Of a DNA stretch of 64,000 nt, positions 27,087 to 30,790 are shown in pieces. Positions within the stretch are counted from its first letter, which is position 1. Each line of letters starts with the position of its first letter. The notes below the pieces were generated by a model. The model saw nothing but the letters and a program-made list of their open reading frames with translations, was not told where the DNA came from and did no database searches. The position numbers and the translations under genes were made by a program. Origin of the DNA: Candidatus Omnitrophota bacterium (GTDB lineage: Bacteria; Omnitrophota; Gorgyraeia; JAHJTE01); assembly GCA_018830005.1 (NCBI GenBank), contig JAHJTE010000001.1:709624-773623 (forward strand), written 5' to 3'.

Positions 27087-28856
27087 ATGAAAAGATCACA
27101 ACAAATTATACTTATTATCCTTGTCGGTTTATTGTTTTATTTTAATAGTCTTTTTAATGGGCTTGTTTGGGATGATGAGTTTTTAATCAAGGACAACCCT
27201 TATATCAGAAGCATTCCGACTGCTTTTTCTTACGCCTTTTCTAATGATCTATTCCCGGGAGAGCTACTATTTAAGCGGACTAATTATTATCGGCCCCTGC
27301 AGACACTAAGTTACTCTCTAGATTTTTTTATCTGGAAAGATACGCCCTTTGGTTTTCATCTCGCTAATTTAATCCTGCATATTATTAATGCCCTTTTAAT
27401 ATATTTAATTATTTCCTGTCTTTATAATCTGCCTTTGGTTTCTTTTGTTTGTGCCTTATTCTTTGTAGCCCATCCTATTCATCATGAGGCAGTGAGCTAT
27501 ATCTCTGGCCGTGCAGATTTATTGGCAGCATTTTTTATCTTGAGCTCTTTTTATTGCTTCCTTAAATATAGACTCGAGAATATAGCTGTGCGGCGCAATT
27601 ATTTCCTTGTTTTATCATTTATTTGTTTCTTTTTAGCACTTCTTTCTAAGGAGTATGCACTTATCCTGCCTTTCCTATTTTTATCCTTTGATTTTTCTTT
27701 TCAAAAATTAAATAGAAAAAATCTAGGCCAATACGTTTTCTTCTTACCCCTGATATTCCTCTTTATCATGTTGCGACTTTCTGCTTTAGGATTGGATAAT
27801 TCATTGCTGGGCGGCAGATATGCACATTTACTTTGGCAGGAATTGCCGATTCGTTTTTTTGGTTTTATAAAAAGCATACCGCTTTACTTAGGTATTTTAA
27901 TTTTTCCGGTTGATTTGCATATGCGCAGAGCCTTTCCCAGACCTGCAGGCCTTTTCGATCCTTTAGTATGGATTGGTATTTTTATTTTGCTCAGTTGTTA
28001 CTTCATTTTTTATAAAAGGAGAAAACAGGAGCCGCTTTATTTATTTTTGTTTCTTTGGTTTTTGATTCCTGTAGTTTCTCAATCACAGCTAACGCTTTCC
28101 GGATTTGGCTTTGCCGAGCACTTTTTATACCTTGCCTCAATGGGCGTCTTCTTTGCTTTTGCAAAGGTTTTTGTGGGCCTTTTTCTTAAATTTAAAGCAA
28201 GGGCGCAAAAACAGAGATTTATCGTTACTATACTTTTAATCTTACTTAGTTTTTATGGCAGCTTGACGAGTGTCCATAATCTTAACTGGAAGGATAGTCT
28301 GACATTCTATAAGTGGACGCTGAAGTTTTCACCCGAGAGCATTAAGTTGCGCATAAATCTAGCCAGAGAGTATATTGCCCTAGGTAGGGATGATCTGGCC
28401 TTAGTTGAATTCTTACGTGCTAAAAAGTTATTAGAGCAAGTGGAGGTATCTAAATATAAAGATAAACCAATTTTAGATTGGACTCTGAATGAGGCGATAG
28501 TAGTCGGCTATTACAATGTGGCTGTGCTTCATGCCAGCCAGAAAGATTATACAAGGGCGGAGCAGGAATATCGGCTGTCCCTTGCGATTAAGCCAAATTT
28601 TAATAAGGCACGTAATAATCTAGCTGCCTTATTGACCAAGCTAGGCAGAGATAAAGAGGCGATAGAGCAATTGTCGCTTGTTTTGAGTTCTGATCCAGAA
28701 GATTTAAAGGCATATTATAATCTGGGCGCAATCTTAGCGAATCTAGGCGAAGATGAAAAGGCAAGGCAGGTCTGGCAAGATGGCTTAAAGATAGATCCGG
28801 ATGATGCCAAGATTGGCGATGCGCTTGCGAGGCTCCTGGAAGAGAAGAAGAGATGA
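27087..28856 (+). CDS. PMT/TMTC-like GT-C glycosyltransferase domain (DUF1736-like, NGLVWDDEF motif) fused to a C-terminal TPR array
   Basis: About 11 TM helices and an acidic DD(E/F) motif in the first periplasmic loop, as in protein O-mannosyltransferases. C-terminal TPR repeats (YYNVAVLHASQKDYTRAEQEYRLSLAIKPN...). Confidence 0.65.
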   Translation: MKRSQQIILIILVGLLFYFNSLFNGLVWDDEFLIKDNPYIRSIPTAFSYAFSNDLFPGELLFKRTNYYRPLQTLSYSLDFFIWKDTPFGFHLANLILHIINALLIYLIISCLYNLPLVSFVCALFFVAHPIHHEAVSYISGRADLLAAFFILSSFYCFLKYRLENIAVRRNYFLVLSFICFFLALLSKEYALILPFLFLSFDFSFQKLNRKNLGQYVFFLPLIFLFIMLRLSALGLDNSLLGGRYAHLLWQELPIRFFGFIKSIPLYLGILIFPVDLHMRRAFPRPAGLFDPLVWIGIFILLSCYFIFYKRRKQEPLYLFLFLWFLIPVVSQSQLTLSGFGFAEHFLYLASMGVFFAFAKVFVGLFLKFKARAQKQRFIVTILLILLSFYGSLTSVHNLNWKDSLTFYKWTLKFSPESIKLRINLAREYIALGRDDLALVEFLRAKKLLEQVEVSKYKDKPILDWTLNEAIVVGYYNVAVLHASQKDYTRAEQEYRLSLAIKPNFNKARNNLAALLTKLGRDKEAIEQLSLVLSSDPEDLKAYYNLGAILANLGEDEKARQVWQDGLKIDPDDAKIGDALARLLEEKKR

Positions 28857-30790
28857 GCAAAAGAAATAAAATAATTTTTATTATAGTACTTGGTTTTCTT
28901 GTCTATTCCAATTCTTTTTCTGTTCCCTTTATCTGGGATGACTTTGGTTTGATAATTAACAATCCACTCATAAAGCAGATTCGCCTCCTGCCGCAGTTAT
29001 TCGTTAATAGACTTATGGTTACAGAGGCAGAGAATAAATTCTTTCGGCCAATACAGGCAGTCTCGAATATGCTTGATTTCCGGATATGGAATGAGAATCC
29101 TTTTGGTTTCCACCTGACCAATATCTTATTACATTCACTTTGTGCAATCCTACTCTATTATTTATTCACCATAATCTTTGCGAGAGAACATATTGCTTTT
29201 TTAAGCGCCCTAGTTTTTCTTATTCATCCTGTGAACGTAGAGGCTGTAACCTATATTTCAGGAAGGGCTGATTCCTTAGCCCTTGTTTTTCTCCTTGCTT
29301 GCTTTATAAATTATGTCAGATTCCGTCTTTATGCAAAGAGGCGTTTATTTTGTTATTCCTGTATTTTATTTGTCCTTGCACTGCTTTGTAAGGAATTAGC
29401 TTTAGCGGGCGTATTTTTGTTTGTCTTGTTGGATTACGCTGTTGATAGAAAAATAAACTTCAAATATTATTCTATATTTTTGGGGTTAGCTCTGGGGTAT
29501 CTACTGTTAAGATATCTTGTTTTTGGTTCACTTTTTATAAAGAGCGAACATTCCTTATCTACGAGATTTCTTACTTCTCTTTTGCATCTATTCGACTACT
29601 TAAGGATTTTATTATTTCCAGTTAATCTTCATATGTCTTATGTCCCTAGGATAGTTACATCCTTTAGTCCAGGGCTTTTACTGAGGCTATTCTCTTGTGT
29701 TTTCTTATTTTTTATTTTCTCGCTTGTTTTAAGAAAAGAAAAAAAGGTATTTTTATTTTGCTTATGTTGGTTTTTTATTTTTCTTATTCCCCAATCAGGC
29801 ATCTTTCCAATAAATGTCTTTTTTGCCGAGCATTTTATATACTTATCAGAATATGCCTTGTTTTTTCTTTTCATCTGGACATGCTCTGAAGTATTAAAAA
29901 CAAGGAAAATACTGCATTATGCTATTCTAGCGACAATGTTTGCCTCTTTGGCTGTTATTACCTTTAGTTATACCCAAGATTGGATTGAGCCAGTTAAATT
30001 TTACAGAAGGATTATTTCTTTTACTCCGGGAAACTACATCGCGCATCATAACCTTGGCGTAGAACTTAATGAGCAAGGTAGGACCCATGAGGCAGAAGAA
30101 CAATATATGACTGCACTTAGAATAAATCAGGATTTTGCACCCGCATATAATAGTTTAGGCATATTGTATTTAGACTCAGGTAAGCTTGATAAGGCAATTG
30201 TGTTTTTTAAACAGGCCATTGCAAGAGGCCAGAACAATGCTGCAGTTTATTATTATCTGGGAAGGGCCCTTAGATTAGCAGGAGATTTTTCTGCAGCGAA
30301 TGAGGCCTTCAAAACAGCCAAAAAGATTGTTCCTTGGGATTCGTCGGTCTATATTGAACTTGCATTACTCTATCGAGACCAGGCAAGGATAGAGGAGGCG
30401 ATTGAGGTATTGAAAAATGCCATCCGTCTTGAGCCTGAAAATAGCTCCTTGCATCTTGACCTTGGTTTATTCTATAAAGAGACAGGAGAAATCTCTGAGG
30501 CAATCACTGAATACGCATTGGCCTTAAAGCTTGATACAGATTCAGTCCAGGCCTATAACAATCTGGGCGTTCTTTACGCCGAGATGGGAGATTTAAAAAA
30601 GGCCTCCTACTGCTTATATAAGGCAACGCAGTTAGATGCGGATTTTCATGAGGCACGTTTTAATCTGGGGCTTTTATATTTTCAAATGGATGAAAACATA
30701 AAGGCAAGAGAGGAGCTTTTAAAAATACCAGAGGCCTCGCCTATTTTTCCTCTTGCAAAGGAGCAGATTGAAAAATTCAAGTATAGATAA
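28853..30790 (+). CDS. second PMT/TMTC-like GT-C glycosyltransferase-TPR protein (tandem paralogue)
   Basis: The same N-terminal motif (PFIWDDFGLIINNP) and a longer C-terminal TPR array. Its start overlaps the upstream stop. Confidence 0.65.
   Translation: MSKRNKIIFIIVLGFLVYSNSFSVPFIWDDFGLIINNPLIKQIRLLPQLFVNRLMVTEAENKFFRPIQAVSNMLDFRIWNENPFGFHLTNILLHSLCAILLYYLFTIIFAREHIAFLSALVFLIHPVNVEAVTYISGRADSLALVFLLACFINYVRFRLYAKRRLFCYSCILFVLALLCKELALAGVFLFVLLDYAVDRKINFKYYSIFLGLALGYLLLRYLVFGSLFIKSEHSLSTRFLTSLLHLFDYLRILLFPVNLHMSYVPRIVTSFSPGLLLRLFSCVFLFFIFSLVLRKEKKVFLFCLCWFFIFLIPQSGIFPINVFFAEHFIYLSEYALFFLFIWTCSEVLKTRKILHYAILATMFASLAVITFSYTQDWIEPVKFYRRIISFTPGNYIAHHNLGVELNEQGRTHEAEEQYMTALRINQDFAPAYNSLGILYLDSGKLDKAIVFFKQAIARGQNNAAVYYYLGRALRLAGDFSAANEAFKTAKKIVPWDSSVYIELALLYRDQARIEEAIEVLKNAIRLEPENSSLHLDLGLFYKETGEISEAITEYALALKLDTDSVQAYNNLGVLYAEMGDLKKASYCLYKATQLDADFHEARFNLGLLYFQMDENIKAREELLKIPEASPIFPLAKEQIEKFKYR

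Follow-up and report, generated by a model that had tools for sequence, protein, structure and literature searches.

What do two tandem genes for polytopic TPR proteins, GT1 and GT2, contribute to the type IV pilus cluster of a Candidatus Omnitrophica MAG, in which they separate the major pilin gene from those of the minor pilins? We analyzed this cluster within a window of 64 kb (the whole stretch of 64,000 nucleotides), where all of the features described here lie on the + strand. The pilus motor and platform, comprising two PilB proteins, each with an N-terminal MshEN domain, and PilC, are encoded at 21559..26201 (Pfam MshEN and T2SSE twice, T2SSF) and are followed by pilA (26579..27007), whose prepilin product of 142 aa, counted from the ATG, matches Pfam N_methyl (E 2.4e-9) and, weakly, the PilA/GspG models of NCBIfam. 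GT1 (27087..28856; 589 aa) starts directly downstream of the pilA stop at 27007 and shares a 4-bp overlap with GT2 (28853..30790; 645 aa). Two minor-pilin genes come next (30903..31415 and 31434..32075; Pfam N_methyl and weak ComGE/GspI-type NCBIfam matches), followed by a PilX-like/DUF4900 large minor pilin (32359..33861; Pfam PilX_N and DUF4900) and by PilM, PilN, PilO, a PilP-like protein, and the PilQ secretin (34364..38729; Pfam PilM_2, PilO, STN, and Secretin). The ORFs and the N_methyl and PilX_N neighbors thus confirm the arrangement put forward in the original prediction, two GT-C–TPR proteins in tandem between pilA and the minor pilins. We regard GT1 and GT2 as real genes because an identical protein has already been deposited, under the name "TPR protein [Candidatus Omnitrophica bacterium]," and because a search of 1.84 billion cluster representatives with the GT1 membrane domain alone recovers 73,046 relatives at E<=1e-3.

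GT1 and GT2 are paralogs (32% identity over the full length, E 5e-69) that join an N-terminal membrane domain to C-terminal TPR repeats. In GT1, these domains cover residues 1 to ~400 (27087-28286) and ~404 to 588 (28296-28850; Pfam TPR at ~476-588), while the membrane domain of GT2 (residues 1 to ~378; 28853-29986) precedes a longer TPR array (residues ~380 to 640; Pfam TPR at ~382-640). The repeats, which had been foreseen for both proteins, are recognized by Pfam TPR_1, TPR_2, TPR_11, and others, with best E values of 1e-16 in GT1 and 7e-37 in GT2. The AF2 models score a pLDDT of 94.6 and a pTM of 0.92 for GT1 and a pLDDT of 95.2 for the membrane domain of GT2. When this GT2 membrane-domain model was compared with the PDB using Foldseek, GT-C enzymes were the only matches, with TM-scores of 0.4 to 0.57; they included STT3, AglB, PglB, DPY19, ArnT, AftD, Pmt1/2/4, and Emb, with AftA also among the structural matches, and sequence identity to the matched solved structures is 10 to 15%. 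The predicted topology has a cytoplasmic N terminus and 11 spans, with a periplasmic DD loop and a periplasmic TPR domain, the latter placement following from the predicted span count. The K/R-rich loops of GT1 (residues 1-6, ~160-171, 205-213, 308-316, and 368-377) alternate with conserved acidic loops, a positive-inside pattern that fits an N-in orientation and an odd number of spans. The hydrophobic helix at residues 253-272 of GT1 is the counterpart of the non-spanning JM3 helix of TMTC/ArnT.

The anticipated first-loop acidic motif is present in both proteins directly past the first hydrophobic helix, as LVWDDEF in GT1 (27171-27176) and FIWDDFG in GT2 (28937-28942), with the DD pair at D29-D30 in each. 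Counted over 67 sequences of the GT-C–TPR family, D29, D30, P70, and E189 are invariant (67/67), and R69 (66/67), Y348 (66/67), D144 (62/67), R142 (60/67), E344 (55/67), and K188 (55/67, the other 12 having Arg) are kept in most. GT1 and GT2 both retain the equivalent of every one of these residues, which argues that they are active enzymes. The animal TMTC O-mannosyltransferases carry seven ligand-binding motifs, of which M1-M4 and M7 have been assigned to catalysis and to metal, phosphate, and sugar binding (PMC7801869). The residues counted above correspond to these five of the seven. Compared with the published motifs (SHKSYRP for M2, KE(T/Q)xxT for M4, and ERxxY for M7; PMC7801869), GT1 and GT2 carry M1 (DD), the YRP of M2, M3 (RxD), the KE of M4, and M7 in the form E-H-x-x-Y. 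The S-H-K-S, the mannose-contacting part of M2, is not conserved in the GT1/GT2 family, and the Glu of the "LHME" loop motif, found in 42 of the 67 relatives, is missing from GT1 and GT2.

Further likenesses to TMTC1-4 (GT-C/PMT clan, CAZy GT105) are the 11 TM helices, the C-terminal TPR on the non-cytoplasmic side, and the TM3 segment quoted for TMTC3 as "HPIHT"; some members of the family are annotated by JGI as "protein O-mannosyl-transferase." TMTCs, on the other hand, are eukaryotic ER enzymes that transfer mannose from dolichyl-phosphate-mannose onto cadherin-type substrates, and their TM7-TM8 loop (DUF1736) is longer than that of the GT1/GT2 family, which the DUF1736 model does not match. 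In the Pfam searches, GT1 and GT2 matched neither PMT_2 nor PMT nor DUF1736, the last not even at E<=10, whereas among 24 family members PMT_2 was found in 8 (best E 9.3e-10), PMT in 2, and DUF1736 in 1 (E 0.045). The GT2 ortholog in one related locus (L002) has a confident PMT_2 match, so the link to PMT is a transitive one. The proposed assignment to PMT/TMTC-type GT-C enzymes therefore stands with respect to the fold, the motifs, and the PMT_2 matches of relatives, but not with respect to the Pfam GT-C models, which leave both proteins unmatched, or to DUF1736, which is essentially absent. PMT (GT39) and ArnT (GT83) have in common with GT1 and GT2 the GT-C_A fold and a first-loop acidic pair, but neither the MIR domain of PMT nor the C-terminal periplasmic alpha/beta domain of ArnT is present in GT1 and GT2.

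The known pilin O-oligosaccharyltransferases PglL/TfpO (PilO) also glycosylate Ser/Thr of type IV pilins in the periplasm, and tfpO likewise lies just 3' of pilA. These Wzy_C, O-antigen-ligase-like enzymes transfer preassembled oligosaccharides linked to undecaprenyl-pyrophosphate and have no TPR. We rejected this family as an identity for GT1 and GT2, which have no Wzy_C match in Pfam or NCBIfam and belong to an unrelated family and fold class. The domain searches thus gave no assignment of the O-antigen polymerase type, which is the kind of assignment that the original prediction had named as refuting it. While its statement that the proteins differ from PglL/TfpO was correct, it overlooked a precedent, TfpW, and because TfpW matches GT1 and GT2 in architecture and in gene position, the novelty implied by the prediction was overstated.

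[quoted passage not shown] It has 11 TM helices, an essential DDX in periplasmic loop 1, and a periplasmic C-terminal TPR domain; its gene lies directly 3' of pilA, and it has been proposed both to transfer and to polymerize alpha-1,5-D-Araf (bioRxiv 10.1101/2020.04.19.049825). We identified a P. aeruginosa-group TfpW (P0368) by its length of 646 aa and its pilA-X-FimB-like context, the gene sitting between pilA and the FimB-like tfpX. In BLASTP, GT1 is 25% identical to this protein over 602 columns (E 2e-18), GT2 matches it at E 2e-11, and the P. indica TfpW homolog gives similar values; hhalign of the family profile against P0368 gave 99.64% (E 7.7e-25, 341 columns). By these alignments, GT1 and GT2 are true full-length homologs of TfpW. 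They resemble it in size, in the N-terminal ~11-TM GT-C domain with DD(X) in periplasmic loop 1 and a C-terminal TPR, in a membrane domain that Pfam misses in all three proteins, and in the placement of GT1, which directly follows the major pilin gene across an intervening terminator. The loop-1 DD aligns with "VWDDS" of TfpW. The proline-rich motif of TfpW periplasmic loop 4, Y-x6-P-F-x7-P, reads Y249-x6-P256-V-x7-P in GT2 and Y267-x6-P274-V-x8-P in GT1, with Phe replaced by Val in both and the spacing in GT1 off by one; the Y-x6-P in the TM7-TM8 loop (Tyr in 65/67, first Pro in 67/67) aligns with that of P. indica TfpW. The two systems differ in their hosts, Omnitrophota as opposed to Gamma- and Betaproteobacteria, at an identity of only ~25%; in the tandem pair of paralogs instead of a single enzyme; in the lack of a tfpX/FimB-like gene at the Omnitrophota locus; and in the TPR repeats, which are canonical in GT1 and GT2, whereas those of TfpW have diverged beyond recognition by Pfam. 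TfpW forms a separate long branch in a rough tree and is not grouped with GT1 and GT2, so linkage to pilins may have arisen more than once. The proposed role in pilin O-glycosylation is strengthened by this homology, and we still treat it as a candidate function.

The pilin itself is less telling. The globular part of PilA is 27% Ser+Thr and ends in ...AAATSASSPIE, and this Ser/Thr-rich tail, which had been offered as a sign of glycosylation, is real and conserved in kind among orthologs; Ser/Thr richness, however, does not discriminate between GT-adjacent and other pilins. Between pilA and GT1 lies an intrinsic terminator (27029..27070), consisting of a 17-bp GC-rich hairpin and a U-run. For the spacer, the folding energy is -28.7 kcal/mol (z = -5.43), a value that none of 200 shuffles reached, and nearly all related pilin-to-GT spacers have a comparable hairpin 3' of the pilin gene. 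A terminator between pilA and accessory genes has been described for P. aeruginosa and other species, and glycosylation of the pilin protects P. aeruginosa pili from phages (PMC11841053).

How closely the family as a whole is tied to pilins bears on whether GT1 and GT2 are dedicated to PilA. In a sample of 102 family genes that was not selected for pilins, 12 have a prepilin gene directly upstream, where the expectation was ~1.5% (binomial P 5e-8), and a stricter control gave 10/86 pilin-following family genes versus 4/148 (Fisher p 0.009). These genes are mostly confined to a few clades, the GT1 and GT2 clade included. Orthologs at ~52% identity keep the order PilB-PilB-PilC-pilin-GT1-GT2-minor pilins, and independent clusters show a pilin-GT-pilin-PilMNOPQ order. 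About 88% of the sampled members have no pilin gene as a neighbor, which means that across the family there are substrates other than pilins and that adjacency taken by itself is a weak argument. GT1 and GT2 could accordingly be general periplasmic protein O-glycosyltransferases of the TMTC/PMT kind that act on many envelope proteins, their site in the pilus cluster reflecting co-regulation or action on minor pilins or PilQ. This is in keeping with the size of the family (73,046 representatives), most of which is not pilin linked, with the many paralogs of Omnitrophota genomes, often in tandem arrays without a nearby pilin (L061, L100, and L103), and with the several substrates that TMTC and PMT each modify (PMC7801869). 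We nevertheless consider it rather unlikely, given the richness of the GT1/GT2 clade in pilin-adjacent genes, the pilin-to-GT order kept at ~52% identity and recurring in unrelated clusters, and the restricted pilin specificity of TfpW, the closest experimentally studied homolog.

It is less likely still that the acceptor is a lipid or glycan, such as a cell-surface polysaccharide, with ArnT/Emb/Aft-like enzymes using their TPR as a scaffold. ArnT, AftD, Emb, and AftA are indeed among the structural matches, and the proposed polymerizing activity of TfpW would be of this type; yet a fused TPR domain is what marks the protein-directed members, TMTC and TfpW, and the pair lies inside a pilus cluster whose flanks within the window hold no polysaccharide synthesis or export genes. 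We give very little credence to a role mainly as TPR assembly factors resembling the pilotins PilF/PilW/Tgl, in which the membrane domain would be an anchor without enzyme activity. A PilF/Tgl-type gene was not seen elsewhere in the pilus cluster, and NCBIfam does return PilW (44 bits for GT1 and 85 for GT2) and Tgl (29 and 74 bits), but these matches are below the respective cutoffs of 154 and 225 bits, and TPR matches of this sort are generic. Known pilotins, moreover, are lipoproteins, whereas GT1 and GT2 open with an 11-TM enzyme domain, have no lipobox, and strictly conserve the GT-C catalytic and ligand-binding residues.

We therefore favor, with moderate confidence, the reading that GT1 and GT2 are inner-membrane GT-C enzymes of the TfpW/TMTC type whose most likely task, judging from gene position and homology, is O-glycosylation of the pilin encoded upstream; the minor pilins may be further targets. 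In this scenario, a sugar would be attached to the periplasmic globular domain of the pilin ahead of pilus assembly; it would come from a polyprenyl-phosphate-linked donor, and the TPR domain would grip the pilin during glycosylation of its Ser/Thr hydroxyls. Readthrough of the terminator 3' of pilA would keep the enzyme far scarcer than the pilin. The two paralogs may serve different sites or pilins, act as initiator and elongator, or form a PMT-like heterodimer. As for the sugar, the 64-kb window holds neither a D-Araf gene of the UbiA/DprE type nor an obvious synthase for polyprenyl-phosphate sugars, whereas tfpW of P. indica adjoins D-Araf genes, its UbiA-type neighbor scoring 210 bits against an NCBIfam cutoff of 207. 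With no D-Araf genes linked to the pair or seen in the window, the donor may well differ from the decaprenyl-phosphate-arabinose of TfpW, and since donor-sugar genes are not linked, pilin glycosylation is a function that we infer.

TfpW has hitherto passed for an oddity of a small number of Proteobacteria. Its relatives hold the same position in pilus clusters of an uncultivated phylum far removed from these bacteria and of several other metagenomic lineages, and one GT-C–TPR family unites TfpW with the animal TMTC O-mannosyltransferases and with tens of thousands of entries annotated only as "TPR protein." The locus thus represents a plausible pilus-glycosylation system precedented by TfpW, not a new machine or mechanism. 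More tentatively, and with the odds somewhat against it, the pilin-linked TfpW/TMTC-like clades might constitute a widespread, unrecognized pilin O-glycosylation system in Omnitrophota and other uncultivated phyla that draws its sugar from some donor distinct from decaprenyl-phosphate-arabinose. The Omnitrophota version would then have evolved into an obligate pair of paralogs, either a PMT1/PMT2-style heterodimer or a division into initiator and elongator, coexpressed with the pilin through c-di-GMP riboswitches. Because Omnitrophota are thought to need pili to make contact with other cells, a sugar coat on those pili could be of ecological importance. The comparison also provides better annotation for a very large, poorly annotated family and supplies a testable enzyme-substrate pair.

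The pilA leader contains a c-di-GMP-I-GGC riboswitch aptamer (26348..26424; Rfam RF03167, 66.8 bits against a gathering score of 59, E 1.3e-13), followed by a terminator-like hairpin and T-run (26430..26467), a 12-bp stem and then TTATTTTTTT, which is probably the expression platform of this riboswitch. Sigma-70-like promoter candidates upstream (26276..26338), TTGACT-18-TATAAT (11/12 matches) and TTTACA-17-TATACT, are proposed from their match to the consensus. The longest pilA ORF begins at a TTG at 26570, while the annotation of the source contig calls the start at 26579. A second c-di-GMP-I riboswitch (32144..32230; Rfam RF01051, 51.8 bits against 35) precedes the PilX-like gene, and the pilus regulon here is controlled by five c-di-GMP riboswitches.

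The window holds a complete type IV pilus cluster, all of it on the + strand, which runs from two PilB-type ATPases (starting at 21559 and 23281) through PilC (from 25002) and the prepilin gene pilA (26579..27007) to the two GT-C glycosyltransferase-TPR proteins, GT1 (27087..28856, 589 aa) and GT2 (28853..30790, 645 aa, with a 4-bp overlap with GT1). Two minor pilins, a PilX-like protein and PilM/N/O/P/Q follow 3' of GT2, in that order. GT1 and GT2 are full-length paralogs (32% identity, E 5e-69), and a deposited protein identical to GT1, from a Candidatus Omnitrophica MAG, is named simply "tetratricopeptide repeat protein." The motifs VWDDEF and IWDDFG and the pilin tail ATSASSPIE, quoted in the original prediction, were all found in window ORFs. 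Coinciding with GT1 and GT2 is a composition anomaly at 26001-30000 (GC 0.365-0.370, GC skew of ~0.05, and AT skew of about -0.175, versus ~0.39-0.40, ~0.15, and ~0 in the rest of the window). The anomaly probably arises because very hydrophobic proteins use T-rich codons; alternatively, the region may have been acquired from elsewhere.

The original prediction had pointed to the Pfam families PMT_2, DUF1736 and TPR. TPR was borne out in both proteins, their C-terminal arrays being the sole models matched in Pfam and NCBIfam scans, whereas the isolated membrane domains of ~400 residues matched zero Pfam models, even at an E value of ≤10. PDB sequence searches with GT1 and with the family profile likewise returned zero matches. 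Structures were predicted for full-length GT1 (pLDDT 94.6, pTM 0.92) and for the GT2 membrane domain (pLDDT 95.2, pTM 0.94). A Foldseek search with the full-length GT1 model was uninformative for the fold, being dominated by TPR proteins such as OGT, SPY and APC/C, and was rerun on the membrane-domain-only model of GT2 to avoid such TPR-driven matches. Meaningful TM-scores (0.4-0.57) were then obtained exclusively for GT-C enzymes, namely, STT3, AglB, PglB, DPY19, ArnT, AftD, Pmt1/2/4, Emb and AftA, with the GT-C-like PIGU subunit also among the matches; unrelated transporters scored ≤0.2. Identity to the matched structures was 10 to 15%, and no solved family stands out. At the level of predicted structure, this settles the fold of both proteins as GT-C, in agreement with the architecture originally proposed. 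Judging from sequence, a link to the PMT clan exists as well, albeit a transitive one through family members: 8 of 24 match PMT_2 (best E 9.3e-10), 2 of 24 match PMT, and a single one matches TMTC_DUF1736 (E 0.045). A metagenomic ortholog of GT2 (locus L002) is a confident PMT_2 match.

The original prediction compared the pair with PglL/TfpO alone, a contrast that overlooked TfpW as a precedent. [quoted passage not shown] The same study names Pseudomonas indica as having pilA, tfpW and D-Araf genes together (bioRxiv 10.1101/2020.04.19.049825). A degenerate prepilin pattern scan of GTDB genomes located the P. indica locus and did not retrieve P. aeruginosa PA7, and the P. indica homolog served as a proxy for TfpW until a search from it recovered P0368, a 646-aa protein labeled "Pseudomonas aeruginosa group." The P0368 gene is flanked by pilA on one side and a FimB-like (TfpX-type) gene on the other, opposite pilB-pilC-pilD; this is the group IV locus, and P0368 is authentic TfpW. 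GT1 aligns with P0368 over 602 columns spanning membrane and TPR regions (25% identity, E 2e-18), GT2 matches it at E 2e-11, and the family profile alignment A3 matches it in hhalign at 99.64% (E 7.7e-25, 341 columns); against the P. indica homolog, the E values were 8e-19 for GT1, 2e-15 for GT2 and 8.4e-24 for A3. The architecture and gene position are also the same, and the membrane domain of TfpW, like those of GT1 and GT2, goes undetected by Pfam. On the strength of these homology searches, we therefore regard GT1 and GT2 as distant yet genuine homologs of a proven pilin glycosyltransferase. The new kind of pilin glycosylation that had been implied does not hold up: the pair belong, as distant members, to the TfpW type, and this type in turn falls within the TMTC/PMT-like GT-C-TPR family. 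The novelty lies in the host phylum, in the tandem pair and its conservation, in the lack of a nearby arabinose pathway, and in the scattering of pilin-linked members through a very large family annotated merely as "TPR protein."

In P. indica, a UbiA-family neighbor of tfpW reaches the NCBIfam cutoff for decaprenyl-phosphate phosphoribosyltransferase. Directly 3' of the tfpW homolog, at 4473-6161 of the locus (L029), lies a second membrane protein, of 562 aa, that weakly matches terminal beta-(1->2)-arabinofuranosyltransferase (AftB-like) and is followed by the decaprenyl-phosphate phosphoribosyltransferase, a PAP2-like protein and an SDR. P. indica pilin may therefore carry a branched or capped arabinan.

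The residues conserved in the family resemble those of TMTCs, in which DD (M1), SHKSYRP (M2), RxD (M3), KE(T/Q)xxT (M4) and ERxxY (M7) are assigned roles in catalysis and in binding metal, phosphate and mannose (PMC7801869). Invariant positions in a 67-sequence alignment include D29, D30, P70, H91, H129, P130, E189 and P274. Both GT1 and GT2 hold the TMTC-like DD, (Y/F)RP, R142-x-D144, K188-E189 and E344-H-x-x-Y348, at positions conserved in 55 to 67 of the 67 relatives. Unlike in TMTCs, the S-H-K-S part of M2, a mannose contact in TMTC models, is not conserved; in the family's LHME loop motif, Glu is replaced in GT1 and in GT2. TMTCs have 11 TM helices and a lumenal TPR domain, and the hydrophobic helix in their TM7-TM8 loop is not membrane spanning (PMC7801869). 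In GT1, K/R-rich loops (1-6, ~160-171, 205-213, 308-316 and 368-377) alternate with conserved acidic/polar loops. With helix 253-272 taken as juxtamembrane, the predicted topology has 11 spans, the N terminus inside, and a periplasmic DD loop and TPR domain.

The GT1 membrane domain has 73,046 relatives (cluster representatives) at an E value of ≤1e-3 and 37,335 at ≤1e-10. Orthologs at ~52% identity keep the whole gene arrangement, tandem pair included. A 37%-identical paralog also lies 3' of a prepilin gene, outside a full pilus cluster, and two further paralogs have no neighboring pilin gene. To sample linkage, 80 metagenomic loci were chosen by family motifs alone (102 family genes); the locus scan was built on the tighter alignment A4, A3 being too diverse. 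A prepilin-motif ORF lay directly 5' on the same strand in 12 of the 102, versus ~1.5% expected from motif density (binomial P 5e-8). In the same loci, 10 of 86 family genes and 4 of 148 other large ORFs were pilin preceded (Fisher p 0.009, OR 4.7), a conservative control because many of these loci are pilus clusters themselves. A rough neighbor-joining tree, without support values, groups GT1 and GT2 with three more pilin-adjacent genes in one larger clade, shows a second clade made up wholly of pilin-adjacent genes, and sets TfpW on a separate long branch; a single clade of pilin-linked members including TfpW is not supported by this tree. Several independent clusters have the order pilin-GT-pilin-PilMNOPQ with one GT. 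Pilin linkage is thus recurrent and clade specific, is limited to a minority of family members, and could have more than one origin.

Two other arrangements were seen among the loci. In six (L089, L094, L101, L104, L109 and L110), a GT-C-TPR gene of a separate clade lies directly 3' of one or two tandem genes for 122-aa pilins, whose C-terminal FWSPYGP is conserved, in what looks like a second, independent pilin-GT module. Five others (L061, L100, L103, L046 and L067) carry tandem arrays of three or four GT-C-TPR paralogs with no pilin gene nearby; here the family expands locally for non-pilin substrates.

The fold, the TfpW homology and the gene position support the candidate role in pilin glycosylation that had been predicted, and we consider it the likeliest mechanism, with a fair degree of confidence, that GT1 and/or GT2 glycosylate prepilin in the periplasm before assembly. 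Inner-membrane prepilin would expose its globular domain to the periplasm, where GT1 and/or GT2, their active sites facing the same side, would hold it via their TPR domains and transfer sugar from a polyprenyl-phosphate donor to pilin Ser/Thr hydroxyls ahead of assembly. The Ser/Thr-rich C-terminal tail, conserved in kind among orthologs, is one candidate site; Ser/Thr richness as such does not mark GT-adjacent pilins (0.21 versus 0.19 in other pilin-like ORFs). The two enzymes could serve different sites or pilins, divide initiation from elongation, or form a heterodimer. A broader role, in which the pair act as general periplasmic protein O-glycosyltransferases, is a less probable reading that we still take seriously, and a transferase directed at lipids or glycans appears improbable. 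Least credible of all is a PilF/Tgl-type TPR assembly factor; that every catalytic residue is strictly conserved in GT1 and GT2 argues against it.

GT-C enzymes use polyprenyl-phosphate-linked sugars as donors. Neither D-Araf genes nor a clear polyprenyl-phosphate sugar synthase was found in the 64-kb window or beside other pilin-linked family members. The sole donor-gene candidate encodes a 243-aa GT2-family glycosyltransferase (62273..63007, - strand; distinct from the protein GT2) lying 31 kb from the pair, whose two best NCBIfam matches, ArnC and dolichyl-phosphate hexose transferase, are both far below cutoff; though unlinked, it is a possible donor synthase for the GT-C enzymes. It is grouped at 60933-63827 (- strand) with a B12-binding radical SAM enzyme (HpnJ/BchE-like, below cutoff) and a 282-aa ORF that has no matches.

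Expression of the pair may be tied to that of pilA at the RNA level. The pilA leader carries a c-di-GMP-I-GGC riboswitch (26348-26424, + strand; 66.8 bits versus 59) followed by a terminator-like hairpin, and in the pilA-GT1 spacer a GC-rich hairpin of 17 bp is joined to a U-run (-28.7 kcal/mol, z = -5.4); almost every related pilin-to-GT spacer has a comparable hairpin 3' of its pilin gene. In P. aeruginosa, among other species, a hairpin of this kind separates pilA from its accessory genes and is believed to keep the enzyme-to-pilin ratio low (PMC11841053). We infer readthrough past the pilA-GT1 hairpin. In all, the 64 kb contain five c-di-GMP-I-class riboswitches, two of RF03167 (the GGC variant) and three of RF01051, at 26348-26424, 32144-32230, 52431-52551, 57171-57290 and 58395-58484 (all + strand), each 5' of a set of pilin, minor-pilin or pilin-like genes. 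The window is an unusually dense RNA-level c-di-GMP regulon, with the proviso that the GGC variant may bind a ligand other than c-di-GMP.

Protein-level c-di-GMP signaling surrounds the pilus genes at 19612-24981 and 50500-52227, with a HAMP-GAF-GGDEF protein (19612..21057), a stand-alone MshEN-domain protein (~21067..21510), MshEN N-domains in both PilB-type ATPases, and a CHASE2-GGDEF protein (within 50500-52227, - strand). A second pilin-like gene set at 52617-60831 comprises N_methyl proteins (from 53792 and at ~57.2 kb), an 823/860-aa ORF with no Pfam match (54335..56917), a 569-aa ORF with no match (58607..60316) and a ComP_DUS-like minor pilin (60337..60831); the product of this set may be a second pilus or a fiber for DNA uptake.
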